In this document: one piece after another, positions 7,291 to 48,459 of the stretch
Layout of the letters: each line of letters begins with the position of its first letter
How positions within the stretch are numbered: position 1 is the stretch's first letter
From: Candidatus Binatia bacterium
Lineage (GTDB): Bacteria; Desulfobacterota; Binatia; UBA9968; JAJDTQ01
Reading direction: 5' to 3'
Length of the DNA stretch: 64,000 nt
Assembly (NCBI GenBank): GCA_022824205.1
Contig: JAJEAI010000171.1
Location: 1,193 to 65,192, forward strand
The notes under the pieces: model-generated
Database searches by the model: none
The model's input: only the letters and a program-made list of their open reading frames with translations
Told to the model about the DNA's origin: nothing
Made by a program: the position numbers and the translations under genes

Positions 7291-8540
<1,250 letters not shown>

Positions 8541-10803: not shown

Positions 10804-10932
10804 TCCAGCAAAGACGGGGATTGTGAGCGACGCCGTGACGGCCAATCCGGTCCAAGTGGAGACCGATAGCGGATGAGGCACGCTATGGTCTCACGCCATC
10901 AACCGGTCGGCCCATACCTCCATCGCCACCCG
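10804..10932. repeat. Direct repeat B (~129 bp), overlaps the genuine 3' end of the ADP-ribosylglycohydrolase pseudogene
   Basis: See repeat A. Confidence 0.7.
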
Positions 10933-12661: not shown

Positions 12662-12665
12662 TGTC

Positions 12666-13076
12666 ATGCTGCCGAGGGAAGTATTCATATCTCATTCTGA
12701 CCAGGATCGACCGTTCGTTGTAGAACTGGTCTCCATGATGCGGCGCCATGGGCTGCCGGTCTGGTTCAGCAACACCGATATCGTGGGGGCAAGGCAGTGG
12801 CATGATGAGATCGGGGCGGCGCTTCGCCGTTGCGATTGGTTTGTGCTTGTCTTGTCTCCACGTTCAGTGGAATCCATCTGGGTCAAGAGGGAACTCCTGT
12901 TTACCCTCCAGCAACAGCGCTTCGACAACAGGATTGTCCCATTGCTCTACCAATCCTGCCAGTACGAGGAACTTTCCTGGACGCTGTCTGCCTTCCAGAT
13001 GATTGATTTCACAGATACCTTTGAGGCGGGTTGTCAGGCTCTGCTGCGTCTGTGGGGTTTGGGATTTCAGCGGTGA
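12666..13076 (+). CDS. Stand-alone TIR-domain protein 2 (136 aa)
   Basis: EVFISHSDQDRPFVVEL...LPVWFSNTDIVGARQWHDEI...WFVLVLSPRSVESIWVKRELLF is a second TIR domain. It starts 4 nt after the TIR1 stop. Confidence 0.75.
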   Translation: MLPREVFISHSDQDRPFVVELVSMMRRHGLPVWFSNTDIVGARQWHDEIGAALRRCDWFVLVLSPRSVESIWVKRELLFTLQQQRFDNRIVPLLYQSCQYEELSWTLSAFQMIDFTDTFEAGCQALLRLWGLGFQR

Positions 13077-13220
13077 CGAGACACGGTGCAAATGCCGTAA
13101 ATCGATAAACCGACGTAGTCCCGCGGACAAGCGAAGCCCCTGCCTTGTCCTTCAGGCGGTCGGTCTCTCACTCTTTGACTCCCCCCCGCAAATGCCTTAG
13201 CCTACCCTCTGGGAGTCGAA

Positions 13221-13493
13221 ATGTTTGGTATCGGAATGCCCGAGCTGCTCTTGATCCTGGCCGTGGCCTTGATCGTCCTGGGGCCCAAGAAGTTGCCCGA
13301 GATGGCGCGCGCCCTGGGCCGTGGGCTGGCCGAGTTTCGCCGCACCACGGATGACATGAAACGCGAATTGCAGACCGCGGCCGACGAGATCGAGACGCCT
13401 CCGCCCGCCGAGAACACGCATTCCGAACCGTCCGGAGAAGGCGCCCCCGCCAATACCATGTCTCCAGCGGGCGATCCCCCCACGAAAGAGTGA
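13221..13493 (+). CDS. tatA: Twin-arginine translocase subunit TatA/E
   Basis: [41 protein letters not shown]. Confidence 0.85.
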
Positions 13494-13567
13494 ACGCGGA
13501 CGAAGGAGCGGGCGCGGAAGAGAGCGCCGGCGCGGACGAGGAGGAGCGCCTGTCGGACGACGCCAGC

Positions 13568-14311
13568 ATGTCGCTCACCGCGCATCTGGAGGAGCTGCGT
13601 TCCCGCCTCATCAAGTCCGCCGTGGCCGTGCTCCTGGCTTTCCTGGCCTGCTACACGGTGGCGGGCTGGCTCATCGCCTTCATGACCGCGCCCCTCCTGC
13701 GCCTGGAGGCCGCGGGTCTCACCGTCATCGGCACGGGCGTCGCCGAGGCCTTCTTCGCCAAGCTCAAGGTCGCCTTCGTGGCCGCGGTCTTCGTGGCGTT
13801 GCCGGTGCTCCTGTGGCACGCTTGGCAGTTCGTGGCGCCGGGCCTCTACAGCACCGAGAAGCGCTACGCCAGGGCCTTCGTGGTCTACGGCACGCTGTTT
13901 TTCCTGCTGGGGGCGGGGTTCTGCTACGTCGTGATCTTCGACGTGGGCTATCGCTTCTTCCTGGAACAATACGCGCAACTGGACGTCCGCCCGGCCATTC
14001 GCGTGAGCGAGTACCTGGGGTTTTCGGCCAAGCTCATGCTGGCCTTCGGCACCGTGTTCGAGTTGCCGGTGGTGGGGGTGTTCCTGGCGCGGGTGGGGCT
14101 CATCGACCACCGCATGATGATGCGGCACTTCCCCTACGCCCTGCTCGGCATCGTGGTGCTGGGCGCCGTGCTCACGCCGCCCGACGTGGTCTCGCAGATC
14201 CTGCTGGCGCTGCCGCTGACCGCGCTCTACGGACTGACCATCGTGCTGGTCTATTTCATGAGGCGGAAGGACGCGGGGACGGATGAAGGGGACGAGGGGG
14301 ACGAAGAATAG
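13568..14311 (+). CDS. tatC: Twin-arginine translocase subunit TatC
   Basis: MSLTAHLEELRSRLIK... with 6 TM helices. An alternative GTG start at 13490 overlapping the tatA stop is also possible. Confidence 0.85.
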   Translation: MSLTAHLEELRSRLIKSAVAVLLAFLACYTVAGWLIAFMTAPLLRLEAAGLTVIGTGVAEAFFAKLKVAFVAAVFVALPVLLWHAWQFVAPGLYSTEKRYARAFVVYGTLFFLLGAGFCYVVIFDVGYRFFLEQYAQLDVRPAIRVSEYLGFSAKLMLAFGTVFELPVVGVFLARVGLIDHRMMMRHFPYALLGIVVLGAVLTPPDVVSQILLALPLTALYGLTIVLVYFMRRKDAGTDEGDEGDEE

Positions 14312-29875: not shown

Positions 29876-30464
29876 TCACGCTCCGGACTGACGATTCACC
29901 TCGACCTCCACGTTCCGGATCCTTTCCATCAACGCATCGAACCGCGGTGCCTCGTCGCGAATGATGCTGGCGGTCCGCATCGCCTCGTAGTCCGATTCGA
30001 GAAGGACGAGTTGGTCTTCGTCGGGAACGAGCCTCAGCCGGCCGTCCAGGCAATGATTGTAGTTGGCGTAGGTGGCGTTGAAGAAAACCGTCTTATGACG
30101 GACGACATCCTCGAAGATAACGCGGTCGGTGAGGGCCGCTCGGCTGGCGTTGTGGTGGGCGAGGCACGCCAAGTCGAACCAGTGCCGAGATATCCGTTCC
30201 GGGTTCTGCGAAAGCCTGCGCCTGTGGCATTCGACATGGATGAGGGTGGCTGAAACGGTCGATGATTCCGTAGACCTTCGAAAGGGATGTGCCTCCCTTG
30301 AAGGCCATCGGGTGAAGATCCGGTATGGAGAAGAGTATCTGTAGAACCCAACAAATCCAGATGTCCTTCTCCAAGATGACCGCCGGCCGCCCTGACCGGA
30401 CGGCAATGGTCTCAAGGATGTCTCTCTGGTCTCGGGCATTCAACGAGAGGAAGGCTTCAGCCAT
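29876..30464 (-). pseudogene. AbiEii/AbiGii-family nucleotidyltransferase toxin, frameshifted
   Basis: N-terminal ORF (30093-30464): ...RPAVILEKDIWICWVLQILF...FKGGTSLSKVYGIIDRFS.... C-terminal part in another frame (29876-30439): ...HWFDLACLAHH.... Confidence 0.65.
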
Positions 30465-31065
30465 GGGCGGTGTCCTGGCCGGGGGCGTTGAGTGCCATCG
30501 CCATCCACGCGGGAACGTCGGCCGACCGTAGCTTCTCGAACTCCGCCGGGCTCATGGCAGACGCGATCGTGGCGACAGTCTCCGGTGTCACGTTGTCCTT
30601 GCCGAGATACCAGAGGGCGGAGAGTGCCAAGCCCGCCATCTCGCCGGCGAATTGAAGCCTCCGACTGTTCGACGTGTGGATCATCTTGACCGTGATGTTG
30701 CCGATGTGGATCGGGCGGCTGGACGCGCTGGTATGGAACACGGGCGCGCTAGGCACCTGGGTGCTGAGCCCGAACCGCCGCGCCGCTTCCGCGCCATGAA
30801 TTTGGACGGTTTCGCCATTGTGTTTGGCGATGGCTTGAACCACGTCGAAGACGCTGGGGACGACATTGCCAACGAAACGGTTCTTGCGCGGGCGAACGAA
30901 TACGCCCCGGGAGAGCCGCTCGAGTTCCCCCTCGTGGACGATTCGTGAAAGGGCACGGTCGACGGCTCCCCGCCGTCCGCAGTTGGCAAAGCGCGATGTT
31001 GTAAAGGGCTTGCCCGTGGGCAGGCTGCGTATACGGTTTCGAATGGCCTCCGCAGTGGACATCAT
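30457..31065 (-). CDS. AbiEi-family antitoxin / transcriptional regulator
   Basis: MMSTAEAIRNRIRSLPTGKPFTTSRFANCGRRGAVDRALSRIVHEGELERLSRGVFVRP is an AbiEi_4-like N-terminus. 8-bp overlap with the AbiEii start. Confidence 0.65.
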   Translation of the reverse strand: MMSTAEAIRNRIRSLPTGKPFTTSRFANCGRRGAVDRALSRIVHEGELERLSRGVFVRPRKNRFVGNVVPSVFDVVQAIAKHNGETVQIHGAEAARRFGLSTQVPSAPVFHTSASSRPIHIGNITVKMIHTSNSRRLQFAGEMAGLALSALWYLGKDNVTPETVATIASAMSPAEFEKLRSADVPAWMAMALNAPGQDTAHG

Positions 31066-31523
31066 AGGACTCCAGCTTGTCTTAAAATACAGTGGTTTTT
31101 CGGACAAATCAAGAGCCTCGGAGAGGGGTGCTGTGCAAGAGCCTGTGTCAGCAAGGGAGAGGGTACTCCAGTGGGTTGACCGAGGCGCACAACGGGTAAA
31201 CGCCAGGATCAGTCTCGATGATTTCGAGCCCCTCCCGAGTTCAATCAACCCCGTTCGTCGGTGATAAGTTCGTAGCTGGTACTGCGCCCGCGGAGATTAT
31301 GGGCACCATTCTCCGCAAACCTCCCTCATCAGGATGTTGTTGCACCAATTCTGGAGACTGCGGCGAAGGGCTGTCGATGTCCGGCCGCTGATTGGAAGTA
31401 CGGGTCCCATGGTCTGACTTTGCCCTAAGGAGAGTCATCGGAGAACATTTTTCAGAGATCTAAGCATATGTTAGGATTATTCATATTCAATAGCTAGTTT
31501 TGCAGGACTTAGGAGCAGTTCTC

Positions 31524-33086
31524 ATGTCCTCTAATAAATTTAGCAGCAGCACTCACCTCCCGAATCATTTTTCAGGCCCCATAACCGTTTTTCAGGAGCG
31601 CCGGCTGTCAGTGCCGGCTACCCCAGCCGGTTATGCCGCACTCATCGGAGCCTACGGTCTGCGGGTACCGGTGCCGCGTACCCTGAGCGCCACGGGGGAA
31701 CGGCACAGGATCATTGAAGAAGGCGGCTGGCGCATCTATTCGCCGCGTCATGCGCCGAAACCCAGCCTGGAGGGCCACCTGACCTTCGCCCTCAAGCACG
31801 AGGGGCTCGACCTCTTGGTCCTCAAGCGCCTGTTTGCCGCCACGGGTCCGGGACCCGTCGAGAATCTGGTCAGGGTTAAGCCGACGGGCGCCTACGCTCG
31901 ACGCGTTTGGTTTCTCTACGAGTGGCTGACCGGACACCGGCTTGACTTGCCCGACGCCGAACGCGGGGCGTACGCTTCGGTCGTCGATCCGGGCCGCCAG
32001 TATGCCGCCCGCCCCGAGACCTCCAGGCGGCATCGGGTCAAGAACAACCTGCCGGGTACGCCGGCATTCTGTCCGCTGGTGTTTCGCACCGAAACCCTGG
32101 AACGTTTTGCGGCCATGGAGTTGCAGGCGCGGGCGCGGGAGGTCGTGGACGCGGTCCCGAAAGACCTGTTGGCGCGTACCGCGGCGTTTCTGCTGCTGAA
32201 GGATTCCAGGTCCAGCTTCGCCATTGAAGGCGAGCATCCGCCCCAGGACCGTATTCAGCGGTGGGGCCGGGCCGTAGGCGAGGCCGGACGCCGGCCGATC
32301 GATCTTGACGAGCTGTTGCGCCTGCAACGCATCGTCATCGGCGATGCCCGCTTTGTACAGCTCGGACTGCGCACGGAAGGCGGCTTTGTCGGTCAACGGG
32401 ATCGCGAGTCGGGGGCGCCGATCCCCGACCATGTCAGTGCTCGATCCGAGGATCTGGCTAGCCTCGTCGAAGGGCTGATCGCGTTCGACCAAGGGGCCGC
32501 GCAACAGCTCGATCCCGTCGTGGCCGCGTCGGTCATCGGCTTCGGTTTTGTCTACATGCATCCGTTTGAGGACGGCAACGGCCGCATCCACCGTTACCTG
32601 ATCCACCACGCCCTCGCCCGGCGCGGGTTCAACCCGCCCGGCGTGGTGTTCCCGGTATCGGCGGCCGTGCTGGAACGGATCGACGACTATCGCGCCGCAC
32701 TCGAAGACTATTCGCAGCGGTTGCTTCCCGTGGTGGACTGGGAACCCACCGGGAACGGCAATGTACGGGTGCTCAACGATACCGGTGATTGTTACCGTTT
32801 CTTCGACGCCACGCCACAGACCGAGTTTCTATACGGGTGCGTGCAGCAGACAGTCGAGCGGGATCTGCCGGAGGAAGCTGCCTTCCTGAAACGCCATGAG
32901 GGGTTTCGTACGGCATTGAGTCTGCTGGTCGACATGCCCGAAAGGGTGTCCGACCTCCTGTTCCGCTGCCTCCACCAGAATGGAGGGAGGTTGTCCCGCC
33001 GCCGCAGGGAACGGGAATTCGCCGCGCTGACCGATAATGAAGTGGAGCGCATCGAAGCGGCCTATCGCGAGAATTTCCAAGCCTGA
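31524..33086 (+). CDS. Fic-family protein (AMPylator-type, HPFxxGNGR motif)
   Basis: ...YMHPFEDGNGRIHRYLIHHAL...; AT-rich promoter and SD aggagcag. Confidence 0.85.
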   Translation: MSSNKFSSSTHLPNHFSGPITVFQERRLSVPATPAGYAALIGAYGLRVPVPRTLSATGERHRIIEEGGWRIYSPRHAPKPSLEGHLTFALKHEGLDLLVLKRLFAATGPGPVENLVRVKPTGAYARRVWFLYEWLTGHRLDLPDAERGAYASVVDPGRQYAARPETSRRHRVKNNLPGTPAFCPLVFRTETLERFAAMELQARAREVVDAVPKDLLARTAAFLLLKDSRSSFAIEGEHPPQDRIQRWGRAVGEAGRRPIDLDELLRLQRIVIGDARFVQLGLRTEGGFVGQRDRESGAPIPDHVSARSEDLASLVEGLIAFDQGAAQQLDPVVAASVIGFGFVYMHPFEDGNGRIHRYLIHHALARRGFNPPGVVFPVSAAVLERIDDYRAALEDYSQRLLPVVDWEPTGNGNVRVLNDTGDCYRFFDATPQTEFLYGCVQQTVERDLPEEAAFLKRHEGFRTALSLLVDMPERVSDLLFRCLHQNGGRLSRRRREREFAALTDNEVERIEAAYRENFQA

Positions 33087-34235: not shown

Positions 34236-34523
34236 CTATGCGGCAGCGATCCGTTTGACCTTGAGGGTCCGCTCCAAGTGGCGGGACCTCGCAAGGTCGA
34301 AGGCCAACTGCATGCCTAGCCATGTCTCGGGAGTGGAACCGAATGCCTTGGATAAGCGATAGGCCATGTCGATCGAGATGGACGCTTTCTCATTGACCAA
34401 GTTGGATAGCGTCTGGCGCCCGACCCCGAGCCACCTTGCGCCATCGGTGACCGACAGTCCCAGAGGCTTCAAGCAGTCTTCGCGCACGATGGCGCCGGGA
34501 TGTACGCGGTTTTTCATCGTCAT
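34236..34523 (-). CDS. higA: HigA-family antitoxin (XRE HTH), orphan
   Basis: ...VHPGAIVREDCLKPLGLSVTDGARWLGVGRQTLSNLVNEKASISIDMAYRLSKAFG.... No HigB-sized ORF fits in the 120-nt upstream gap. Confidence 0.8.
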   Translation of the reverse strand: MTMKNRVHPGAIVREDCLKPLGLSVTDGARWLGVGRQTLSNLVNEKASISIDMAYRLSKAFGSTPETWLGMQLAFDLARSRHLERTLKVKRIAAA

Positions 34524-34643
34524 TGAGAGCCTCCGAATGGTAGTCCAGTTAATCGACGTCCACGGCGTGCCCGCCAGCCCGAAGTCGCCGCCCTTGGCGA
34601 GGGAGGGGAAGACGGCGTTGAACCCTGCTTCGTTGCCCGTCCC

Positions 34644-37600
34644 TCAATGTCGCAGCCTCTGGTCGATTTCCGCTTCGTCGTCTTGCCGTAGCGCCTCCCG
34701 GTCGTAGTCGGCCGCGATATTCTCCAGCATACTCCCCACGTAGGGGTAGTGAGGGCTCCGCTGTCTGGCCCAGCTTCGATACTCCTTCGCAAGGTCGCGT
34801 TCCTGCTCCCCTCCCTCCCCGATGGCGCGCGAGACCACGCCGCGTCCATTGTGGATGCCGATGCTGAATCCTGAACCGATATCCGGGGATCCAATCTGTT
34901 CCATCGCTTCGCATACTGCAAGACAAGGCTTGATGCCGTCGTTATCGGCCGGAGCCCTCGACAAAATCTGACCGATATAGTGATCTCCGATTTTCACGCG
35001 GCCATACTCCGCGCATAGTCGCCGCGCCTCGGCTATCCACTGAGACAACACCTCCACATCAATGTCGCCTCCTTCCCCGATACCCGGAACAAGGCTGATC
35101 CGTTCAAGAAGCCCATAAGCGGCGGCAGTCAGTGCGGCCCTTTTCTCGGTGTCTTCGGTTTGCCATTCAGGAGGATCCTGTCCTCCGTCGTCACGTTTGA
35201 ATACAAGTGCCAGGACTTGAACAAAGCCAAAAGGAGATTCGGAGAGCCACTGCTCTAGGTTGGGAATCCCGTGCTCACTGTATTCCAACGTTTGGATATA
35301 CATAAATTCCAATCGTACCATCTCGTCTCGGCTGACGTCGCCGCGGCCGTTGAGTTCGCTCAATGCCTCTGAGATATAGTGACTCTCAAGCCTATATTGG
35401 TCCGCGGATTCAGTGCCTGCGGTGCCGGCATCGAAGAGCAGACGTTTCAGCCGCAACGACTCGATTTTGGACAACTCCAGGTGCGCAACGTGGAATGCAG
35501 CACGGGGACGTTTCACGTCCAGTAGGCGATCGATGAGCTCAATCAGTTCCGCCTCGTCGTAACGGTTCCATTCCGGGACGACCGCCCGCCAATAGTGATC
35601 TTGGACCTCCGCGTCGTACCGGTCGAGCAGGCGCCACGTGCGTCGCCCTAACGGAGCGCAACGGTATAGTCGGGCGATCTGAGCGGTGTCAGCGTCCACG
35701 GCGTCAGCCGTAAGGAGAGTGCCGCGCGCGTCGTCGCTGGCGGACCAGAGAAACCCCCGAATGCATAACTCGGCCTTCTCCCGCAGATGGTCGGTGACAG
35801 AAAGGCACTGCCTCAGAAAATCAACTCGCGCATCTTCCTCTGGGATGCAGGATTCCAACCCTGCCCCAACGACACCGGGGGCGCCGGTATCCGACAGTAA
35901 CGCGGTGACGCCCTCGAATCCGCGTGCGGTCCATATCTCCTTCATCGCAGCAGTGCGGAGCCTGCGCGTTGTCTCCGCGTCCTTCTCGTAGTCGCGTTCT
36001 TCGTCCTCGATTTCGTCGGAGGAAGGCTCAATCCAGGAATTCGTGAACAGCCAAGCATGCCGGACCACCGGATCCCGTGGTTCCAGCCGATCGTATGCCA
36101 CGCGCGCCCGGTCTACCGCCGTACCTTGCAGGCCGTGCCGACGACCGCGTCGGGTAAACGCGAGCCGGCGAAGCCGCTCTCGAAGATCGGCTTTGGCCCT
36201 GTCGTCCGTTTCCGAGTCCGCCCATGTATCGATCAAGTCCCAAACCGTGTTCTGGCCTTCGTCGGGCAATTCCTGAATTCGCTCCAGGAGATCTCCAAGC
36301 GTCCGTTGGTCATGCTTCGGCCATTCGAGGGCGAGCGCGAGTGCCTTGCGCCTGAACTCATGGAATTGTCCCGCCGTTACGTTAGCGCTCGGCGAGTCGT
36401 CCCGCCAGCGCGGACGGTAGCTGGGCAGCGCCATTTGGGGGCCGGTATCCAACTGTGCGACACAAACTTGCCAGCCGATATCCGGAAACCGCTTCGTCAA
36501 CGTCTTAAGGGCCGCTACCCGTTCCGCGAGCGAAGCGGATGTCTGCGGTAACCACGACCGGTAGAGCGCGGCAAGGCTGGCAGAGGGTTTGTTTGCCCAG
36601 TTGTCGGTGATCGTGATTGTCGACAGCCGCGCGAGTATCAAGCTCACGCGCCCGAGATGATTCCAGGCGAGACAGTCCAAGGCCCACAATAGTCCCGTTC
36701 GCAGGCATCGACCGAAAGGGCCGCTTTCGGCGGGCTTGAGCAGGCCGAAGACGGTTGGCTCCGGCTCTCGCAAATCGGTTTCGATCAGCTTCAGAAACGT
36801 GTCCGGAGCGGCCTCGGCATAGTTTGGAAGATCGTCCTGGTGCGAAAGCAGCTTGTCAATTGTCAGCGGCGTGAGCAGCCGTTGGATGATAGAGGAAACC
36901 CGAGCGTCGAGATCGACACCCAGCCGGTTCCGGAACAGCGTGTCGCCGTGGACCGAGAGGAGCACCAGCGTTTCGCGGATGCCCACTCGCAGTGCGGTGG
37001 AGTGATCGCGTACCTTGCCATGCACGTTGGCGAGCCATCTCTCGTCTTCCGGCAATTCCAGCGCGGGATCGGTTTCCGAAAGCACTCGTTCCGCTACTGA
37101 GAACAAATTGTCGAGATCCGATTCGGTCACGAATCTGGCAATCCCGAACAGGGAGTCGATCCGTGAGACCACTCCCCGATATTCCCCTGTCGACCATAGG
37201 GGTGAGTCTTCGAGAGCCAACAACTCCATGACGCCGGATTCCATGTCGTTGGCGTCGCCCCCCCAGCCGAGTCGCCGGACAATTTCGCAGTCGGCTGGAG
37301 AGGTCTTACGCCAAGCACCAACCAGCGCCGCCGGCAGCAACTTCCGCGCCGTCTGAGCGTCCTCCGCCCAGGCAGGGCTACGGACCGCCGGGCTCGTGGA
37401 TAGCCGTCGGCGCAGGACGGTCGGTGATCGACCCGATTCCCGGGCGAGCAGGTCAATCTTGTCATTGGGTAGTTCCATCGATTCCAGGGCGTCCGAGAAG
37501 TCTTTCCAACCCGGAAGCCCGAGCCTGATGTCGGAATTGGCGTTTACATCGTTACCGGGCCGGACAATGACGCAGTGACAACGCCGGTGGAGATCCCCGA

Positions 37601-38720
37601 TATGCGTTTCGACTTGGTCGTTGTGAACGATTGCCATGCGCGGGGCGGCATTCGATTCATGAAACCGTCGCACGGCTTCAGGTGTGTCGAACACGAGCGC
37701 GCCGGTGCCCGGCTCGTCTGTTTCAGACTTGGCCTCGCCGACAAGACAACACAGGAAAGCAAGCGCCTCATCGCGAGAGTCGGCAGCCACGATGAAAGGT
37801 CGCATCGGCGGTTCGCCCAGCCAACGCCGGAACTCGGCAGAGAAATCCCGGGTCGCTGCATTAAACAGAGCAGGTGAAAGCACCGGGTCGCAGATTTCGG
37901 CCCAATCGGACCAGCATCGTTCGAGCGAGCGATAGCCACTATCGTAGTTGTCGAGACGTTCAGCGAACCAGATTTGCACCGGCGCAGACTGCTCAAGCCA
38001 TTGCTCCAGATCATCCGCATCATGGGCGTGAACATCCTTCCAGTCACCGAGGGCCGCCTTTTCGTCCCGCCATGTTTCTTTCCCCGGCCAGTTGCGCGGT
38101 GTCACGAAGACGAACGTCATGTCGCGACGTTCCTGTGGTGGAACCGACTTCACACGAGCGTCGTAGTCGTGCTGCGCCTTGCGTTTGGGGTCTTGGTTGC
38201 AACCGAACTCCCAGCCGGACTTGCCTTCCGGTATCCATGGCGTCGGCGTCTTGGCCTGTACGACACCGTCCCATCCACGCCGTTCGGCATTGCCGAAGGC
38301 GGGGAAGTCGACATGGGTGAGGTCGCGCCCGGTGGAGTGAATCAGCCGCCGCAGCAGCGCTGGAAGTTCTTGCCGCGCATTGATCTGGTTCGCCCAGCGG
38401 TCTATTTCCCCGGCCCTGACTGAGGCGAGATCCGGCGCGTGCCGCCCAGCGACCACTGGTCGCCGCATCGCATCCCCCTGGCGGTCGTATCGTGTCTGGA
38501 AGTCCAGCAGAGCCTCGCGGTCCGCTCCGAAGGCACGCTCCAATCGCAACGCCATCTCCTGTGACAGCGCGGCTTTGCCGTTCAGGAAGTTAGACAACGC
38601 CGGTCGTCCTATCCCAAGCAATGTGGCGGCCTTGGTGACCGTCATGCCCTCCGGGATCACATGTCGCCTGACATATACGCCGGGATGGATCGGCCTCTGT
38701 TTTGCCCCATGTGGGATCAT
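34644..38720 (-). CDS. Large (1358 aa) protein with N-terminal HigA-type XRE HTH domain; remainder uncharacterised
   Basis: N-terminus ...IHPGVYVRRHVIPEGMTVTKAATLLGIGRPALSNFLNGKAALSQEMALRLERAFG.... No P-loop, nuclease or peptidase motifs found by eye. Confidence 0.7.
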   Translation of the reverse strand: MIPHGAKQRPIHPGVYVRRHVIPEGMTVTKAATLLGIGRPALSNFLNGKAALSQEMALRLERAFGADREALLDFQTRYDRQGDAMRRPVVAGRHAPDLASVRAGEIDRWANQINARQELPALLRRLIHSTGRDLTHVDFPAFGNAERRGWDGVVQAKTPTPWIPEGKSGWEFGCNQDPKRKAQHDYDARVKSVPPQERRDMTFVFVTPRNWPGKETWRDEKAALGDWKDVHAHDADDLEQWLEQSAPVQIWFAERLDNYDSGYRSLERCWSDWAEICDPVLSPALFNAATRDFSAEFRRWLGEPPMRPFIVAADSRDEALAFLCCLVGEAKSETDEPGTGALVFDTPEAVRRFHESNAAPRMAIVHNDQVETHIGDLHRRCHCVIVRPGNDVNANSDIRLGLPGWKDFSDALESMELPNDKIDLLARESGRSPTVLRRRLSTSPAVRSPAWAEDAQTARKLLPAALVGAWRKTSPADCEIVRRLGWGGDANDMESGVMELLALEDSPLWSTGEYRGVVSRIDSLFGIARFVTESDLDNLFSVAERVLSETDPALELPEDERWLANVHGKVRDHSTALRVGIRETLVLLSVHGDTLFRNRLGVDLDARVSSIIQRLLTPLTIDKLLSHQDDLPNYAEAAPDTFLKLIETDLREPEPTVFGLLKPAESGPFGRCLRTGLLWALDCLAWNHLGRVSLILARLSTITITDNWANKPSASLAALYRSWLPQTSASLAERVAALKTLTKRFPDIGWQVCVAQLDTGPQMALPSYRPRWRDDSPSANVTAGQFHEFRRKALALALEWPKHDQRTLGDLLERIQELPDEGQNTVWDLIDTWADSETDDRAKADLRERLRRLAFTRRGRRHGLQGTAVDRARVAYDRLEPRDPVVRHAWLFTNSWIEPSSDEIEDEERDYEKDAETTRRLRTAAMKEIWTARGFEGVTALLSDTGAPGVVGAGLESCIPEEDARVDFLRQCLSVTDHLREKAELCIRGFLWSASDDARGTLLTADAVDADTAQIARLYRCAPLGRRTWRLLDRYDAEVQDHYWRAVVPEWNRYDEAELIELIDRLLDVKRPRAAFHVAHLELSKIESLRLKRLLFDAGTAGTESADQYRLESHYISEALSELNGRGDVSRDEMVRLEFMYIQTLEYSEHGIPNLEQWLSESPFGFVQVLALVFKRDDGGQDPPEWQTEDTEKRAALTAAAYGLLERISLVPGIGEGGDIDVEVLSQWIAEARRLCAEYGRVKIGDHYIGQILSRAPADNDGIKPCLAVCEAMEQIGSPDIGSGFSIGIHNGRGVVSRAIGEGGEQERDLAKEYRSWARQRSPHYPYVGSMLENIAADYDREALRQDDEAEIDQRLRH

Positions 38721-38889
38721 GGCTCAGACTCCTTGCAAACCGTGTGTTCACGGGTTATTGTACTCCGCAACGCTACACAATACAACACTCAACGCTAACC
38801 CTGTACTAAAGAGACTGTCAGCCAGTGTATTGTCGGCGAGCAAGACTGAGTTGGAGGGAACCGTTCAAGCGAAGGAGGAGCGGAAAAAC

Positions 38890-39201
38890 ATGAGGGTTGT
38901 CATCGATTGCAACGTCCTGGTTTCGGCAGCTCGGTCTGGAGGAGTTTGTGGCAAGATCATTGTCGAGGCGATACGTGACCATGAGGTCGTCATTGCCAAG
39001 CCCATTGTAGAGGAATACGACGCGATTGCCGGTCGACTCGCGGTCTTCGGTCTCAATGACCCCGATGATGAAGTCTATCTGGCAACCGCGGTGGCTGGCG
39101 GCGCTGTTCTCATCACCGGCAACAGGCGGGATTTCGTGAAACCGCGGTACGGGCCGGTCGAGATCATCTCTCCTCGTGCATTTCTGGAGCGACCGGAATG
39201 A
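38890..39201 (+). CDS. PIN-domain protein (putative TA toxin), no adjacent antitoxin
   Basis: MRVVIDCNVLVSAARSGG..., 103 aa. Confidence 0.7.
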   Translation: MRVVIDCNVLVSAARSGGVCGKIIVEAIRDHEVVIAKPIVEEYDAIAGRLAVFGLNDPDDEVYLATAVAGGAVLITGNRRDFVKPRYGPVEIISPRAFLERPE

Positions 39202-39268: not shown

Positions 39269-39598
39269 TTACGAGCCTCCCTTGCTACGCCGAGGCGCTA
39301 GACCGCCTTCCCGCCTACCGCCCCGTTCCCTACGAAGCCGGGTGATGTCGGCGATAACGTCTTCCATGATCTCGTCCTCGGAGCGACCGGCGTCCTCGGG
39401 CGAGAGTTCAATTCGGGTGAGAATGGAAGCAACTTGGTCGGCGGCCGCGTTACGGTCCACCACTTCCTTGGGACGAAAAAGGATGCCGTCTCCAACCACG
39501 GTTGCCTCCAAGAGGTCGCCCTCATGCAGATCGAGCCCTCTGCGCAGTTTGGCCGGAATGGTGACTTGGAACTTCGGCTTCACGGTGACTAGAGACAT
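39269..39598 (-). CDS. AbrB/MazE/SpoVT-family DNA-binding protein (antitoxin-like), convergent with the PIN gene
   Basis: MSLVTVKPKFQVTIPAKLRRGLDLHEGDLLE.... Confidence 0.65.
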   Translation of the reverse strand: MSLVTVKPKFQVTIPAKLRRGLDLHEGDLLEATVVGDGILFRPKEVVDRNAAADQVASILTRIELSPEDAGRSEDEIMEDVIADITRLRRERGGRREGGLAPRRSKGGS

Positions 39599-39703: not shown

Positions 39704-40744
39704 CTAGGAGTCAGGCACGAGCACCGGCTTGAGAGCCTCCCCGTCCCGGATGAGCTGAAATCCGCGGGTTGCTTCGGAGAGCGGCAGGACGTGGCTTCGG
39801 ACCGGGGCGAGATCGACGGCGCCGGCCGCGAGCAGTTCGGTGGCGCGCTGCCAGGTCTGCCAGATGAGCCGGCCGTGGATGTTGTGCAGCACCGGGCACT
39901 TGAGCAGCCAGTAGGTGAAGTCCACGGGGATGGCCGCCGCCGGCGCGCCCACCAGCCGGAAGTCGCCGCCCTTGGCGAGGCAGGCGAAGACGGCGTTGAA
40001 GCCGGCTTCGGTGCCCGACAGTTCCACGCCGACGTCCGCGCCCGCTCCGCCCGTCATGTCGCCCACCACGCTCGCCAGGTCCTCGTTCCCGGGGTCCACC
40101 GCGCGGTCCGCGCCCATGGTCTCGGCCGCCCGCAGCCGCACCGGGTTGATGTCGCAGGCGATGACCCTTCCAGCGCCCAAAGCGCGCGCCGCCGCCACCG
40201 CCATGAGCCCGATGGGGCCGCAGCCGTTCACCAGCACGGACAGGCCGGACACCCCAACGCCCGCGAGACAGGCATGAACGGCGATGCCGAAGGGCTCCAG
40301 CATGGCCGCGGTCTCGTGCGGAAGGCCCGGCGGGTTCACCCATGCGATGGACGCGGGCACCGTCAGGTACTCGGCGAACGCGCCGTCGATGTCGATGCCG
40401 GGGTAGCGGGTCTTCTCGCAAAGATGGGCGCGTCCGAGCCGGCAGGCCCGGCAGCGTCCGCAAAAGATGTGGCTCTCGAGGCTGACCCGATCGCCCACGG
40501 CGAGGCCCACCTCGACCCCCGGCTCCACGGCCTCCACCGTGCCCGAGACCTCATGGCCGAGGACCCGCGGCAGCACCATCCGGCGCGCCATGCGCGGCGC
40601 CCAGTTGTAGATCTGCATGTCGGTGCCGCAGATGCCGGCGGCGCCGACCCGGATCAGTATCTCACCGGAACCGGGCTCCCGCGGCTCCGTCTCCCGGACC
40701 GCGATGCCGCCTGCCTCGGGCGCGATCTTCTGAAGGCTCAGCAA
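39704..40744 (-). CDS. Zn-dependent alcohol dehydrogenase (MDR family)
   Basis: GICGTDM..GHE...C..C..C, 346 aa. Confidence 0.85.
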   Translation of the reverse strand: MLSLQKIAPEAGGIAVRETEPREPGSGEILIRVGAAGICGTDMQIYNWAPRMARRMVLPRVLGHEVSGTVEAVEPGVEVGLAVGDRVSLESHIFCGRCRACRLGRAHLCEKTRYPGIDIDGAFAEYLTVPASIAWVNPPGLPHETAAMLEPFGIAVHACLAGVGVSGLSVLVNGCGPIGLMAVAAARALGAGRVIACDINPVRLRAAETMGADRAVDPGNEDLASVVGDMTGGAGADVGVELSGTEAGFNAVFACLAKGGDFRLVGAPAAAIPVDFTYWLLKCPVLHNIHGRLIWQTWQRATELLAAGAVDLAPVRSHVLPLSEATRGFQLIRDGEALKPVLVPDS

Positions 40745-42866: not shown

Positions 42867-44210
42867 ATGACGGAACGCGTTTCCATACTCGCCATCGGCG
42901 ACGTGCATCTGGGCACCGCCTGTTCGGGAGTGCCCGAGGGAATGGCGGACCGCGGCGTCGACCCGCATGAGTTGACGCCCGCGGCCGCGCTCGCGGGTTG
43001 CGTGGATCTGGCGGTGAAGGAGCGTGTCGACGCCGTGCTCTTCGCCGGCGACGTCGTGGAGAGCACCAACGCGAGATTCGAGGCCATGGCGCCCCTCGAG
43101 GAGAGCGTCCGGCGGCTGGTCGACGCCGGAATCGAGGTCATCGCCGTTGCCGGCAACCACGACGTCGAGGCTCTGCCGCGGCTCGCGGCTCTGATCGACG
43201 GCTTCACCCTGTTGGGCGCCGGCGGCCGCTGGGAGACGCGAACGATACCCAAGGACCGGCCCCCGGTGGCCCAGGTGGTGGGCTGGTCTTTCGCTGAAGA
43301 GCGCGTGCGCCACAGCCCGGTGGCGGAGCTTCTGAAACAGCCGTTGGCTGTGCCCTCGCCGCCGGTCCCCAGGATCGGTCTGCTGCACGCGGATCTGGAC
43401 GCGTCCGGCGGACACTACGCACCCATCCGGCAGTCGGAGCTGGACGACACCGGCTATGGCGCCTGGCTCCTGGGGCACATCCACAAGCCCTCGATCGAGG
43501 GGCTGGCGGCGTCGAACGGGACCCGGCCGTGCGGTTATCTCGGTTCGCTCGTGGGTCTCGACTTGTCGGAAACGGGTCCTCACGGTCCCTGGCTCCTCGA
43601 TGTATCTCGTGAGGGCGCCCTCGCGTGCAGACAGATTCCCCTCGCCCCTCTCCGATGGGAGCGCGTGACGGTGTCCGTGGACGGGCTCGAACATGTGGAC
43701 GATGTGCCCGACCGTTTGATGAGCGAAGCCGAGACCCGGGTGCGCCGGCTCGGGGAAGTGGACCGCCTCCCCCGAGCCCTCGGCCTGCGTGTGCATCTCA
43801 CCGGGACGACCGGCTGTTACGAGGGACTCCGGCGCTGGATCGAGGGCGAAGCATGGCGCTCCATGGGGCGGGTGGTGGAAGGCACCGGCGTCTTCTTCAG
43901 CGACGTCGTCGACGCCATGGCGCTGCCGTTGGACCTGGAGGCCATTGCCGCGGGAGACGATCCCGCCGCCCTGGTGGCCCAGAGGCTCCTGGTGCTCGGA
44001 CGCGACGACGAACGGTCGAGGAAGCTCCTCGCCGAGGCCCGCGCGGAGATGGACGGAACCGCTCGCGAGTTGGTGTGGCAGCCCGTTCACGAACACCGCC
44101 ATGCCGCGGACCCCCTGTCGGACGACGCCCTGCGCGACGTTCTGGTGCGGGCGGGAAGGGCGGTCCTCAGCGCCATGATGGCCGGCCGCGAGCAAGGCGA
44201 TTCGACGTGA
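42867..44210 (+). CDS. SbcD/Mre11-like metallophosphoesterase (DNA repair exonuclease-like)
   Basis: GDVHLG, AGDVVE, GNHD and GHIH phosphoesterase motifs. Divergent C-terminal half. Confidence 0.8.
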   Translation: MTERVSILAIGDVHLGTACSGVPEGMADRGVDPHELTPAAALAGCVDLAVKERVDAVLFAGDVVESTNARFEAMAPLEESVRRLVDAGIEVIAVAGNHDVEALPRLAALIDGFTLLGAGGRWETRTIPKDRPPVAQVVGWSFAEERVRHSPVAELLKQPLAVPSPPVPRIGLLHADLDASGGHYAPIRQSELDDTGYGAWLLGHIHKPSIEGLAASNGTRPCGYLGSLVGLDLSETGPHGPWLLDVSREGALACRQIPLAPLRWERVTVSVDGLEHVDDVPDRLMSEAETRVRRLGEVDRLPRALGLRVHLTGTTGCYEGLRRWIEGEAWRSMGRVVEGTGVFFSDVVDAMALPLDLEAIAAGDDPAALVAQRLLVLGRDDERSRKLLAEARAEMDGTARELVWQPVHEHRHAADPLSDDALRDVLVRAGRAVLSAMMAGREQGDST

Positions 44211-47200
44211 AACTGAAGCGGCTCGCCATCAATCGGCTGCCGGGCATCAGCCAACCCTTCGAGATCGAAGCGTCCGGGGCGGGCCTCCACGTCGTGTTCG
44301 GACCCAACGGGATCGGCAAGTCGAGCATCTGCCGCGCCGTCGAGGGGTTGTACTGGGAAGACCGCCATCCTTCTCCACTCACGTCGGTAACCGGGGAGTT
44401 CGAATGGGACCGTGAGTCGTGGTGGGTACACCGCGACGGGACGCGCGTCACTTGGCAACGCAACGGCACCGGCAGCGTTTCTCCGAGTCTTCCCTCGTCC
44501 CACCATGAGCGTTGCTTCTTCCTGCGCCTGTGGGACCTGATCGAGCCCTCCCGTGACGGCGCCGCCGACATCGCCGCGGAGATCCGGCGCCAGATGTCCG
44601 GCGGATTCGACCTGGACGAGATTGCTTCCGGCCTCTTCCCCGGCGTGAGCCGCAACCAGGGCCGGCGGCAACGCGACGACTTCAACAATGCCTCGGAAGC
44701 GGTGGCGAAGACCGTGGCACGGCAGAGCGGCCTCCAGGGGCGCGCGGATCGACTCGGCAGGTTGAGGAGCGATCTCGTGGAAGCGGAAACCGCCGCCCGC
44801 CGGCGCCCCTTCGTGGAGCGCGCCATCGGGCTCGCGCGCCGCCGGAAGGAATTGGCCCGCGTCGTGGAACAGGTCGCGGCGCTGCCCGCGCCGTTGGCCA
44901 AGCTCACCGGCAAGGAGGTCGACGAGGTCCGGCGTTACCAAGACCAAGCGGGCACGTTCACCGAGCGGATGCGCTCGCTGGAAGAGGACTTGCGCCGGGC
45001 GCGCGATAACCGGCGGGAAACCGCCCTCGACCGCCCCGTCGATCGAGCCGAGCTTGCCGTGTGGCGCCAGAAGGCGGACGACCTGCGGCGCGCCGAACAG
45101 GCTCTCGATGTGGCGCGAAGCGAACGCGGGGCCACCGGGAGAGCGCTTGCCTCGGCTTTGTCGGCCGTGGGCGGAGCTGACGTTGACAGGATCTCGTTCA
45201 CACCGTTCGAACACGGCGAGCTGTTCGACTTCCTGCGTTCCAGCCAGGCCCACGGCGCCCGTGCCGGCGCCATTCGGGAACGGTTGCGTCTCATCAAGCA
45301 CGTTGACCTGCCAGAAGGCGCCGAACAACAACTCGCCACGTACCGGGAGGCAACGGAAGCCCTGCGGTCGTGGCTGCGCGTGCCCGAGCCGGACGGTCCT
45401 GTCCGCCGGCTGCGCAACCGGTGGCCCTGGCTCCTGCTTGCTCTCGCGCTGGTGCTGGCCGGCGCCGGACTGGCCGCGATGGCCGATCCCGGCGCCAGCT
45501 TCATCGGCTCCCTCGTCGGTGATCTCGTCCCGCCCGTGCCGTCCGGACTCGCTTCCCTTTCCGCGCTGCTTCTGGGGGTGGGAGGCGGCGTTGCCTTGGC
45601 CGTACTCCTGATGGGCGATCAGCGGCGCTCCATGGCGGCCAGAAGGGCCGCGCGGGAGGCGTTCGAAAGGCTGGCCGCCGACGGCCCCGACAAGTGGGAG
45701 CTTTCGTCCGTGGCGGTCCTCCTGCGCCAACTGGAGCGGCGGATCGCGGCGGCCGAGGCGTGGTTGCAACGGGTGCGCGACCGGGACGTGGAACGGCAAG
45801 CGCTCGAAAACGAGTTGAAGGGTTTGTCCGGACAGGAGGCCGCCCTCGCGGCCCGCCGGGAGGAGCTCCAGGACAGACTGGGCATGGATGCGCTGCCGCA
45901 CGACGCGGAGCTGGTGGACTTTGCCCGCGCCCTGGACCAGCTTCGCCAGACCCGTGCCGGCGACGAAGCCGCGGCGGGCAAGTTGGAAGCCCTTGAGCGA
46001 CAACATGCGTCCCTCCTGGCGGAACTGGCCGCGGTCCTGGAGCAGCATGGCGAGCCGGCGCCGGGAGATGCTGCCACGGCGGCGGCGCGTATCCACAACG
46101 TGGCGGACCGCAATACGCGGTTGGATAAGGCGATCTCCGACGAACGCCACGTGGCCGCTCAACTCGAGGAGAATACCGCCAACCGCGAAGCAGCCCTCGC
46201 CGCCATCCGGCGGATCTACTGCGAGGCGTCGTTGAAGGAGGGAGATCTGGACGGCCTCCTGTCGCTCCTCGGCTCCTTGCAGCTCTATCGCGACCTGGTC
46301 CACGAAAAGACGAGCCTCGATGGCCAGATCGGCCTGGACCGCGCGGATCTCGAAAAGGCCGGGGAATCCGCCCTGGCGGAATGCGACGAGCCCACCCTCC
46401 ATGAGATCAAGCAGGAACTATCCGGCCAGGAGTCGAGCGCCGATGAGTTGAGGGCCGAGATTGCCGAGATCACCGCCGAGATGAACGCGGCCAGGCGCGG
46501 CAACGGGATGCAGGAACTTCTTGCCGCCCGTGAAGCCGCCCGCGCCGGGTTGCGGGATCTCCGCGACCGGGCGCTGTACGCGAAGGCGGGGAGATTCTTC
46601 ATCCAGGCGGTCGAAGCGGAGTATGAGCACAACCGGCTGCCGCGCGTCTTCGAACGCGCCCGCAACCATTTTTCCGGGTTCACACATCACAACTTCCAAC
46701 TGGAGCTGGACAAGGGCAGCGAGACTCCCCGGCTGTACGCGCGGGAATCGCGCAGCGGGGAGACGCGGGAACTGGATGAGCTGTCGGACGGCACACGCGC
46801 CCAACTGCTGTTGGCGGCGCGCATCGCCTACGCCGAGGAGGTGGAGCAGGGCAAGGTCCTGCCGCTGTTTCTGGATGAAGCGCTCGACCAGAGCGACCCC
46901 CAGCGGTTCGAGGCCATCGTGCGCAGTCTCGGGCGCGTGGCCCGGGAACAGGACCGCCAGATCTTCTATCTCACCAGCGACCCATTGGACGTCCACCGCA
47001 TCAGGGACGCCCTCGGCAAGGAGGAGTGCCGCATCGCCGCCGCCATCGACCTGGGCCGGATACGAACGAAGGCCGCGAGCGTCAGCGGCGCGGATGCGCT
47101 CCGCGTCGATCCGGCACCGACGGTTCCGGCGCCCGATCATCTTTCCCTGGAGGAGTACGGTGCGGCCCTCGCCGTGCCCGAGTTCCGTCCGGATCTCGGC

Positions 47201-47773
47201 TACGCGGAGCAGCATTTCTACTATGTGCTGTGGGATGACCTGAACCTGCTGCGCGATTTCCTGTTGAACCGCATCGAGCGAGCCGGACAGTGGCAGACGG
47301 TCCGCGGCACGCCCCTCGCCGAGAGCCTGGGGTCCGGTTCGATCACTCCCGAGGAGATCACCGCGCGGCTGGAGCTGCTGGAAGTCTTTTGCGAGTTGTG
47401 GACGCAGGGAAGGAGCCGTCCCGTCGACCGCGCCGCGTTGGAGGACAGCGACGCCCTCACCGAACGCTACCTGGAGGACGTGGTGACCATCGCACGGGAA
47501 CTGGACGGTGATCCCGTGAGACTCCTCGCTGCCCTCGACGAAGCCCGGGACCCGAGGCTGCGCGGTTTCCGCCAGACCAGCGTCGAGCGCCTGCAGCGTT
47601 ATCTGACCGACGCCGGCTACCTCGACGAACGCCCCATTCTCACCGAGTCCGACCTCACCCTGCGCGCGTGCATCACCCCCGTCGCCGCCCGCATGCCAGA
47701 CCGCGTCACCAACGACTGCCTCAGGCGCTGGTGGGGTTGGGCGCGGAACGCGTCGGAACTCGGAGCGCGATGA
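44207..47773 (+). CDS. SMC/SbcC/YhaN-like AAA ATPase with internal hydrophobic segments (~1188 aa)
   Basis: GTG start overlapping the SbcD stop. Walker A GPNGIGKSS, signature LSDGTRAQ, Walker B LFLDEALD, long coiled-coil. Predicted TM stretch ...WPWLLLALALVLAGAGLAAMA...LLGVGGGVALAVLLMG. No CxxC zinc hook seen. Confidence 0.8.
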   Translation: MKLKRLAINRLPGISQPFEIEASGAGLHVVFGPNGIGKSSICRAVEGLYWEDRHPSPLTSVTGEFEWDRESWWVHRDGTRVTWQRNGTGSVSPSLPSSHHERCFFLRLWDLIEPSRDGAADIAAEIRRQMSGGFDLDEIASGLFPGVSRNQGRRQRDDFNNASEAVAKTVARQSGLQGRADRLGRLRSDLVEAETAARRRPFVERAIGLARRRKELARVVEQVAALPAPLAKLTGKEVDEVRRYQDQAGTFTERMRSLEEDLRRARDNRRETALDRPVDRAELAVWRQKADDLRRAEQALDVARSERGATGRALASALSAVGGADVDRISFTPFEHGELFDFLRSSQAHGARAGAIRERLRLIKHVDLPEGAEQQLATYREATEALRSWLRVPEPDGPVRRLRNRWPWLLLALALVLAGAGLAAMADPGASFIGSLVGDLVPPVPSGLASLSALLLGVGGGVALAVLLMGDQRRSMAARRAAREAFERLAADGPDKWELSSVAVLLRQLERRIAAAEAWLQRVRDRDVERQALENELKGLSGQEAALAARREELQDRLGMDALPHDAELVDFARALDQLRQTRAGDEAAAGKLEALERQHASLLAELAAVLEQHGEPAPGDAATAAARIHNVADRNTRLDKAISDERHVAAQLEENTANREAALAAIRRIYCEASLKEGDLDGLLSLLGSLQLYRDLVHEKTSLDGQIGLDRADLEKAGESALAECDEPTLHEIKQELSGQESSADELRAEIAEITAEMNAARRGNGMQELLAAREAARAGLRDLRDRALYAKAGRFFIQAVEAEYEHNRLPRVFERARNHFSGFTHHNFQLELDKGSETPRLYARESRSGETRELDELSDGTRAQLLLAARIAYAEEVEQGKVLPLFLDEALDQSDPQRFEAIVRSLGRVAREQDRQIFYLTSDPLDVHRIRDALGKEECRIAAAIDLGRIRTKAASVSGADALRVDPAPTVPAPDHLSLEEYGAALAVPEFRPDLGYAEQHFYYVLWDDLNLLRDFLLNRIERAGQWQTVRGTPLAESLGSGSITPEEITARLELLEVFCELWTQGRSRPVDRAALEDSDALTERYLEDVVTIARELDGDPVRLLAALDEARDPRLRGFRQTSVERLQRYLTDAGYLDERPILTESDLTLRACITPVAARMPDRVTNDCLRRWWGWARNASELGAR

Positions 47774-48459
47774 TGTCGTTGGGGCGAGGCTTTACGATTG
47801 GTCTCTACGTCATCGTGCCCCCCGAGTACAGGCGGCTCGGCTGTTTGCCAGCGGAGCAATTCGTCCCGGCTCTCATGGAGCGCCGGGGCCTCCCGTACTA
47901 CGTCGGCCTTCTGTCCGCAGCGCAGTACCACGGTGCGGCTCACCATCGTCCGCAGGAATTCCAGGTGCTCATCGAGAAGAACAGACCCGTGTTCGCCTGC
48001 GGTTCGGTCAAGGTGGCCTTTGTCGCGCGCTGGAACATGCTTGTCGTCCCGGTTCAGAGCTTCAATAATCCTCGGGGAACGGTTCTGGTTTCGACCGTGG
48101 AGGCCACGGCGGTCGACGTTGTCGGATACATGCACCGCGCTGGCGGAGTGGATAGGGTCACCGGAGTCTTCTCCGAACTCGCCGACGACATGGAGCCCCA
48201 GCGCCTCGTCGATGCTTCGAATACGGCGTCGATCCTCTGGGCCCAGCGCCTGGGCTACCTCCTTGAACATGTCGGAGCCGGAAAAAAGGCCGCGCTTCTC
48301 AAGGATCACGTTCGAAAGATCGCACGAAACTTCACGAGACTGCTGCCGGGCGGGAATGTCGAAGGTGCGCCGCGATCGAATGACTGGCGGCTGTACATCA
48401 ACGCGGATGTCGACGGGATATGTGCAGCCGTGTCGGAGAACGGCGTCAGTTTACTGTGA
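47770..48459 (+). CDS. AbiEi/COG5340-like putative antitoxin/regulator-family protein (tentative), translationally coupled (ATGA) to the SMC-like gene
   Basis: ...YYVGLLSAAQYHGAAHHRPQEFQVLIEK... resembles the conserved core of AbiEi-type antitoxins. The assignment is from memory only. Confidence 0.45.
   Translation: MMSLGRGFTIGLYVIVPPEYRRLGCLPAEQFVPALMERRGLPYYVGLLSAAQYHGAAHHRPQEFQVLIEKNRPVFACGSVKVAFVARWNMLVVPVQSFNNPRGTVLVSTVEATAVDVVGYMHRAGGVDRVTGVFSELADDMEPQRLVDASNTASILWAQRLGYLLEHVGAGKKAALLKDHVRKIARNFTRLLPGGNVEGAPRSNDWRLYINADVDGICAAVSENGVSLL

Follow-up and report, generated by a model that had tools for sequence, protein, structure and literature searches.

What is attached to the antitoxin-like head of a very large protein in a Candidatus Binatia bacterium, and does the small antitoxin gene beside it belong to the same system? 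The question arises on contig JAJEAI010000171.1, from which a stretch of 64,000 nucleotides (nt), called the window here, was analysed. Two open reading frames (ORFs) are at issue:

34644-38720, minus strand: large ORF of 1358 amino acids (aa), from the ORF listing; read here as an Avs8-like STAND (signal transduction ATPase with numerous domains) protein with a fused helix-turn-helix (HTH) and no P-loop, forming a single-gene module.
34236-34523, minus strand: small ORF, a 95-aa HigA, from the ORF listing (TIGR02607, 95.9 bits); read here as the orphaned antitoxin of a higBA pair.

As the initial annotation described, the two ORFs run in the same direction 120 nt apart, and each carries an HTH of HigA type. 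The NCBIfam HigA model TIGR02607, whose curated cut-off is 47.7 bits, gives the large protein 55.6 bits (aa 8-79) and the small one 95.9 bits; Pfam HTH_3 matches both. We put the probability at roughly 60% that the large protein is a single-polypeptide antiphage receptor of the Avs kind, resembling NLRs (nucleotide-binding leucine-rich-repeat receptors) and distantly related to Avs8A, also named PD-lambda-4A. Judged by profile alignment, its family is a large sister family of Avs8A. A defence role for the family is probable, and a self-regulating effector in a defence context, which the initial annotation had raised as one possibility, is plausible.

The body of the protein had been described as free of recognisable ATPase, nuclease, protease or transferase motifs. 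This holds for family models: aa ~85-1358 have no match in Pfam, NCBIfam or PADLOC, and PDB sequence searches with the window protein and with a 150-sequence profile return HigA/XRE structures at the first ~80 residues only. Pfam searches of 36 diverse relatives at E≤1 likewise return HTH families only. It does not hold for the predicted structure and for residue conservation, where STAND/NLR matches and a conserved Mrr-like motif were found. The domain order is:

38484-38699, minus strand: HigA/XRE-type HTH, aa 8-79 (TIGR02607, HTH_3, HigA/XRE structures in the PDB).
37935-38423, minus strand: predicted Mrr-like nuclease-fold domain of the PD-(D/E)xK type, aa ~100-262.
37071-37874, minus strand: predicted STAND-type nucleotide-binding oligomerisation domain (NOD), made of an alpha/beta nucleotide-binding domain, a helical domain and a winged helix, without the nucleotide-binding loop, aa ~283-550.
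35187-37070, minus strand: predicted alpha-solenoid (TPR/HEAT-like) sensor, aa ~551-1178, homologous to the Avs8A sensor.
34647-35186, minus strand: family-specific helical C-terminal cap, aa ~1179-1358, outside the profile alignment with Avs8A.

AlphaFold2 models were built from a 120-sequence alignment. The model of aa 85-760 has a predicted local distance difference test score (pLDDT) of 87.6 and a predicted template-modelling score of 0.76; that of aa 700-1358, in which the cap is helical, has a pLDDT of 85.5. The initial annotation had called the body uncharacterised and had proposed a structure search as a check. That search places STAND/NLR proteins on top in the PDB (Foldseek: Avs3 with E 4e-7, SAMD9, Avs4, Apaf-1, NLRPs and CED-4), and the body proved to match a characterised STAND family, Avs8/PD-lambda-4. 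As modelled, aa ~283-550 are a NOD with all three of its subdomains, and a NOD fold followed by a repeat sensor is a feature of STAND/NLR proteins. Structurally, the nuclease domain comes closest to restriction enzymes of types IIS, ISP and IV, and the C-terminal half matches generic solenoids only. The cap contains a strongly conserved, glycine-rich loop between helices (aa ~1284-1320, nt ~34761-34871; G-F-x-I-G-x-x-N-x-R-G-V-x-x-R-x-x-G-E-G-G-x-Q-E-R). This loop has no counterpart in Avs8A-like proteins, and the cap as a whole has no known match.

The relationship to Avs8A comes from profile comparison. The PADLOC model PD-Lambda-4_A matches 22 of the 36 diverse relatives (best E 3.6e-10), including members without the HTH. 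The match lies at aa ~530-750 of the relatives, is co-linear with profile positions 558-676 of 1283 and covers only ~110 of the 1283 positions. A longer comparison is possible through a 1281-aa protein encoded on Rhizobium leguminosarum plasmid pPR4, which PD-Lambda-4_A matches over its full length (E 8e-66) and which has the Walker A sequence GASGLGKS. This Avs8A homologue matches the family profile with 94% probability (E 1.5e-7). When a profile of 37 Avs8A-like sequences, relatives of the pPR4 protein, is aligned to the family profile with hhalign, the match has 99.0% probability (E 4.8e-18, 990 columns) and pairs family aa 95-1178 with Avs8A-like aa 3-1141. The homology therefore runs from the nuclease domain through the NOD and across most of the sensor, leaving the last ~180 aa as family-specific. 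On these alignments, co-linear homology of the body to Avs8A at superfamily level is near certain. Two distant tblastn matches, a 922-aa Buttiauxella plasmid protein and a 1204-aa protein from a 'Bacteriophage sp.' scaffold, have no PADLOC match and provide no bridge to Avs8.

On pPR4 the two families stand in tandem (3469-13753): a 1372-aa member of the present family is followed at once by the 1281-aa Avs8A homologue. The 1372-aa protein is a distant member, fused to an HTH and without a P-loop. An 'RHE_PE00001 family' protein with weak SoFic similarity precedes the tandem, TniB and Mu-transposase genes adjoin it, and similar matches occur on several Rhizobium plasmids.

The family departs from Avs8A most clearly at the nucleotide-binding site. 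A Walker A motif (GxxxxGK[ST]) is present at the homologous site in 36 of 37 Avs8A-like proteins versus none of 150 diverse relatives of the window protein; it is likewise absent from plasmid and phage-scaffold members with 26-40% identity. In the profile alignment, Avs8A-like 'i-G-SGvGKSRF' stands opposite family 'itADS--EaLAF'. The replacement, A-D-S-x-x-E-A-L-A-F, is itself conserved (S315 in 140/145, E318 in 143/145, A321 in 138/145), and the former Walker A site thus looks repurposed, not decayed. The region of the GxP motif is kept as SGRSPTVLRRRL, with R437 and R438 near-invariant, and positions equivalent to Walker B are variable.

The nuclease domain is also altered. Its motif reads G-W-D151-G...W-E171-F-G173...K181-A-x-x-D185-Y. 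The Mrr-like G-x-D-G is kept (D151 and G152 in 144/144 relatives), as is the strand glutamate E171 (143/144), and an invariant K181-A-x-x-D185-Y lies on the helix after the E171 strand. Over the 150 diverse relatives, D151, E171, K181, D185, S315 and E318 are 97-100% conserved.

Loss of both the Walker A motif and the ExK lysine might suggest that the gene is a decaying, functionless relic of an Avs8-type gene, and other genes in the window have decayed (a frameshifted AbiEii, and remnants of a PIN gene and of higB, described below). Against this, the ORF is intact over 1358 aa, it has thousands of relatives of near-constant length with 55-80% full-length identity, and the replaced Walker A site is strongly conserved at S315 and E318. 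We regard a relic as the most improbable of the explanations weighed here, close to negligible.

The family is large. A word-indexed search found at least 2486 homologues of the large protein; the best 120 have 55-100% identity, are nearly all 1353-1362 aa long and bear the HTH. When only the body (aa 95-1294, without the HTH) was used in an exhaustive HMMER scan against clusters at 50% identity, there were 6735 matches at E≤1e-3, 5209 at 1e-10 and 2780 at 1e-30. In a scan of one genome per species, at least 553 species carry the family at 46-89% identity. They include Binatia, Alpha-, Beta- and Gammaproteobacteria, Nitrospirota, Acidobacteriota, Firmicutes, Chloroflexota, Cyanobacteria, Planctomycetota, Gemmatimonadota and Latescibacterota. 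This cross-phylum spread at such identities points to horizontal spread under strong purifying selection. There are 25 plasmid records with a member, and 12 of these plasmids are conjugative; in the records the protein is labelled 'HigA family addiction module antitoxin', 'helix-turn-helix transcriptional regulator' or 'hypothetical protein'. The window lies on a metagenomic scaffold. Its locus has no megablast match among plasmids, and its closest relatives with shared synteny are chromosomes of Candidatus Binatia metagenome-assembled genomes.

About 10% of representatives lack the HTH. These are 1244-1265 aa long, and their first residues already belong to the nuclease domain. In four metagenome-assembled genomes (L047, L077, L038 and L013) a small ORF of its own encodes the HTH and overlaps or directly precedes a body ORF of 1257-1330 aa; these could be natural splits or assembly frameshifts.

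No neighbouring gene is conserved with the family. When flanking ORFs at 80 loci were clustered all against all, the largest cluster reached 9 loci, and on this count a partner gene elsewhere was rejected. An Avs8B-like partner is absent among the flanking ORFs of the large-gene loci. The commonest clusters are HsdM-like methylases (9/80 loci), HsdS (5) and integrases (5). Among the largest flanking ORFs at 46 loci are the restriction-modification (RM) types N6_Mtase (5), MmeI-type (3), N6_N4_Mtase (3), Eco57I (3), HsdS (2) and type ISP (1), together with PIN_12 (2), IrrE (2) and transposases; an RM gene is the largest flanking gene in about a quarter of loci.

The frequency of RM genes nearby, together with a nuclease domain closest in structure to type IIS, ISP and IV restriction enzymes, would suit a restriction-like enzyme in which the HTH directs an Mrr-type nuclease to foreign or modified DNA and the solenoid is a scaffold that senses no phage protein. 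Such an enzyme would not account for the conservation of ~1000 aa of NOD and solenoid, homologous to those of a receptor that senses proteins. HigA-type HTHs bind operators and are not restriction specificity modules, and some members have no HTH at all. We hold this explanation to be distinctly unlikely.

The fused HTH raises the further question of regulation. One stretch upstream of the large gene is a candidate for its operator:

38757-38785, minus strand: candidate promoter/operator block, 29 nt, TTGTATTGTGTAGCGTTGCGGAGTACAAT; the best conserved upstream stretch in the window and in two related loci, L004 (the closest relative) and L006.

The block contains an inverted repeat, TTGTA...TACAA, and a -10-like TACAAT, and it may be the promoter/operator of the large gene. 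It was found only through the alignment of close relatives; a generic promoter and terminator scan and an inverted-repeat search gave nothing convincing and did not call it. HigA represses its own promoter. By analogy, the fused HTH most likely represses the promoter of the large gene and keeps a dangerous nuclease at a low level.

The HTH can also be taken as the output of the protein. MalT, GutR and AfsR are signal-sensing transcription factors of the STAND class, and the large protein might be a non-immune member of this kind, with a solenoid that senses a metabolite or protein and a nuclease-like domain that is dead. The DNA-binding domain in ~90% of members fits this, as do the loss of both the ExK lysine and the P-loop, the interspersion of defence and non-defence STAND clades, and a majority of neighbours that are not defence genes. 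What it lacks is a target, in that no neighbouring gene or operon is conserved for it to regulate. The whole body is kept in members without the HTH, and invariant D151, E171, K181 and D185 would be unexpected in a dead active site. The patchy spread across phyla at 46-55% identity, with members on conjugative plasmids and next to RM systems and integrases, also speaks against it, and the nearest characterised relative is an immune nuclease. A transcription factor of this kind is an unlikely explanation, if the most serious competitor of the antiphage receptor.

The small HigA requires a separate explanation. The initial annotation had offered, as its other possibility, that the large ORF encodes a toxin with the 95-aa HigA as its dedicated antitoxin, an atypical type II toxin-antitoxin (TA) pair. 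The ORFs are co-directional and 120 nt apart, and the two HTHs are 46% identical over 70 aa, which makes cross-talk at the operator conceivable. The distribution of the small gene argues otherwise. A HigA-like ORF lies downstream of the large gene in 0 of 79 loci from other species, the only case being the window's own contig. Synteny with the closest relative, L004 (90% nt identity through the alcohol dehydrogenase (ADH), MazE, PIN and large genes), stops 6 nt past the stop codon of the large gene. The expectation that homologues would keep both features fails for the HigA neighbour, and for the HTH in the ~10% of homologues that lack it.

The small HigA has relatives of its own. More than 3900 homologues were found, many at 82-89% identity, and those at 84-89% are antitoxins of ordinary higBA pairs. 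In close homologues the higA gene lies 11 nt downstream of one for a 92-aa HigB-like toxin (PF05015), and in a second lineage only 47 aa of the upstream HigB remain. The initial annotation saw no HigB here, and no intact higB or ORF of HigB/RelE fold next to the small HigA is present in the window's ORF listing. The 120-nt spacer (34524-34643) is not empty of it, however, and holds the 3' end of a deleted higB beside a second gene fragment:

34530-34572, minus strand: 3' remnant of a deleted higB, ~45 nt (in homologous loci L089 and L093 it matches the 3' end of higB and the junction between higB and higA).
34551-34639, minus strand: fragment of a zinc-dependent ADH (Zn-ADH) gene, ~89 nt (blastn); not part of the system.

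The higB remnant reads ..GHAVDVD*LDYH versus ..DGRAVDVDYVDYH* in intact HigB. The ADH fragment, which reads GTGNEAGFNAVFPSLAKGGDFGLAG in frame 0, derives from within the Zn-ADH gene, 5.3 kb away; by blastn it is 89.6% identical to window positions 39941-40017 and 86.5% identical to the ADH gene of L004. This copy abuts or overlaps the higB remnant. Together the two fragments mark the spacer as a rearrangement scar, and they suggest illegitimate recombination directly 3' of the large gene. Read from these alignments, the small HigA is an antitoxin left behind when a local rearrangement removed the toxin gene of a canonical higBA pair. With near-identical HigA homologues paired with a HigB 11 nt upstream and such a scar in the spacer, the toxin-antitoxin proposal for the giant protein is very improbable and, in our view, should be dropped.

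Two other origins of the small HigA were considered and rejected. It is not a recent duplicate of the HTH of the large protein, to which it is 46% identical, versus 82-89% to ordinary HigBA antitoxins. It is also not what is left of the N-terminus of another family member lost by deletion, as its C-terminus does not run on into the nuclease domain of the family. Among its homologues, HigB has 47 aa in one widespread lineage with HigA intact (loci L093-L098, 2346-2489, versus L089-L092, 2211-2489). That lineage and the window together suggest recurrent loss of higB with higA kept.

In the antiphage receptor as we propose it, the solenoid would wrap around a phage protein that is conserved, and this may be the major capsid protein by analogy with EcAvs8A. 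Ligand binding would lift autoinhibition and allow oligomerisation via the NOD, and the clustered N-terminal nuclease domains would then cut DNA and abort the infection. The switch would be driven by ligand only and would be independent of nucleotide, because the nucleotide site is gone. The fused HTH would meanwhile hold its own promoter repressed, as in HigA.

Several findings weigh against this reading. The window protein itself has no match to PADLOC PD-Lambda-4_A at E≤1, and the family is only ~16% identical to Avs8A-like proteins in the profile alignment, so a ligand cannot be transferred from Avs8A with confidence. The position of the (D/E/Q)xK lysine is G or S in all relatives, and the putative nuclease activity would need K181 as a substitute lysine. 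The loss of the P-loop implies a genuine difference in mechanism and could bring a different output, because EcAvs8A needs ATP and apparently its hydrolysis. The role given to the HTH is pure inference. A defence gene is the largest neighbour in only about a quarter of loci, which is suggestive and not a measured enrichment. Experimental work on any family member was not found in the searchable literature.

A bolder form of the proposal is that the family is an ancient, very large NLR-like clade without nucleotide binding, in which the new ADSxxEALAF motif replaces the lost site and sensing is wired to DNA by the fused HTH. The protein would then either switch transcription on sensing phage or be a nuclease tethered to DNA and licensed by its ligand. 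We offer this tentatively and consider it doubtful; if true, such a mode of NLR signalling is to our knowledge undescribed for any Avs family. In STAND/NLR receptors, nucleotide binding and exchange are generally held to switch between the autoinhibited and the oligomeric state. Thousands of clusters with an NLR-like body under strong selection and without a P-loop would be a natural system in which to study switching by ligand alone, and the fused HTH is a testable case of a possibly self-regulating defence effector. The family also matters for annotation. PADLOC v2 misses it, and its members are now labelled only 'HigA antitoxin', 'HTH regulator' or 'hypothetical'; its numbers are probably too low in defence censuses and probably wrong in TA censuses.

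The surroundings of the locus resemble a defence island, as the initial annotation had stated, with metabolic genes interspersed: two AbiEi genes, a frameshifted AbiEii, a Fic protein matching PDC-S24, and PIN/MazE remnants. The AbiEii toxin gene is broken up into two ORFs that overlap, 29876-30464 and 30457-31248 (both minus strand), of 123 aa and 187 aa. Each matches an opposite end of PF08843, which indicates a frameshift. They sit downstream of an intact AbiEi/DUF6088 antitoxin gene, and the module is thus a decayed AbiE. A 528-aa Fic-domain protein (31500-33086, plus strand) matches PDC-S24, a PADLOC candidate defence family, over almost its full length (E 2e-201) and more weakly resembles SoFic. 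Immediately upstream of the large gene, a 103-aa ORF (38890-39201, plus strand) and a MazE/AbrB-type antitoxin gene (39269-39598, minus strand) lie tail-to-tail. The 103-aa ORF matches only the final ~28 positions of PIN_3 and is a probable PIN remnant, making this another broken TA pair; it is kept in L004 and L006. Further away, an operon-like trio (42867-48456, plus strand) encodes a 447-aa SbcD-like metallophosphoesterase, a 1188-aa AAA_27/SMC-like ATPase that weakly resembles LmuB, mad3 and PtuA, and an AbiEi_1 protein (PADLOC AbiEi, E 3e-67). In L004 this SbcD/AAA_27/AbiEi_1 block is found on the opposite side of the large gene.

The nearest characterised system is Avs8. PD-lambda-4 was first isolated from ECOR30 for its activity against lambda, with the description 'ATPase, hypothetical', and its protein A has HHpred similarity to NB-ARC/AAA_35-type ATPases at aa ~224-392 (Vassallo et al. 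2022, PMC9519451). It was later renamed Avs8: Avs8A, an Mrr nuclease with a P-loop NTPase, is enough for defence, and Avs8B is dispensable (bioRxiv 10.1101/2025.07.02.662641). Purified EcAvs8A binds major capsid proteins of the HK97 fold with a dissociation constant of 14-127 nM, and capsid-bound Avs8A degrades double-stranded DNA, for which it needs Mg2+ and ATP, apparently with hydrolysis (bioRxiv 10.1101/2025.07.02.662641). The Avs8A proteins of ECOR30 and ECOR07, at ~1280 aa, share with the present family an Mrr-type nuclease, a STAND NOD and a large helical-repeat sensor in the same order. Both families occur on mobile elements, in tandem on Rhizobium plasmids. The two families also differ. 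Avs8A-like proteins begin at the nuclease domain, whereas ~90% of family members start with a HigA-type HTH; no member examined has a Walker A motif, whereas EcAvs8A needs ATP; and the nuclease motif is D...E-x-G/S with K181 in place of D...Q-S-K. The last ~180 aa differ, identity is ~16%, and the family has no Avs8B-like partner.

A precedent exists for an Avs8-type receptor without Walker motifs. A census of prokaryotic STAND proteins lists Avs8 among ~90 defence-associated families, and the conserved residues for nucleotide binding are naturally missing from KpAvs8 (bioRxiv 10.64898/2026.01.04.697583). The preprint text on KpAvs8 makes no mention of an HTH, and the motifs of the present family were not found in the part of the Avs census seed table that was searched (bioRxiv 10.64898/2026.01.04.697583).

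Avs3 and Avs4 (PDB 8dgc and 8dgf), Apaf-1, CED-4, NLRPs and SAMD9 share the NOD fold and the logic of effector, NOD and repeat sensor, and Avs4 also has an N-terminal Mrr-like nuclease. These proteins bind ATP and have no detectable sequence similarity to the family, and Avs3 and Avs4 have sensors and ligands of their own (terminase and portal). The HigA proteins of HigBA systems (PDB 6f8s, 4mcx and 2icp) correspond to the N-terminal 80 aa of the large protein and to the whole of its 95-aa neighbour, all being HTHs of the HigA family; the large protein has 1270 further residues and no HigB partner, and the small HigA has lost its HigB. DSR2 consists of a SIR2 effector and a large helical sensor, with no NTPase and no NOD fold; its solenoid binds a phage structural protein, and its activation is ATP-free. 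The large protein would resemble DSR2 in being a single large protein with an N-terminal effector and in sensing without ATP, and the effector differs.

The initial annotation knew of no described system with this layout. For the body plan that no longer stands: an Avs/NLR-like antiviral STAND protein with an N-terminal nuclease is known, and its nearest family, Avs8, is characterised. For the rest it does, and what is new is the family-wide loss of the P-loop with a new motif in its place, the fusion to a HigA-type HTH, the altered nuclease motif and the distinct cap.

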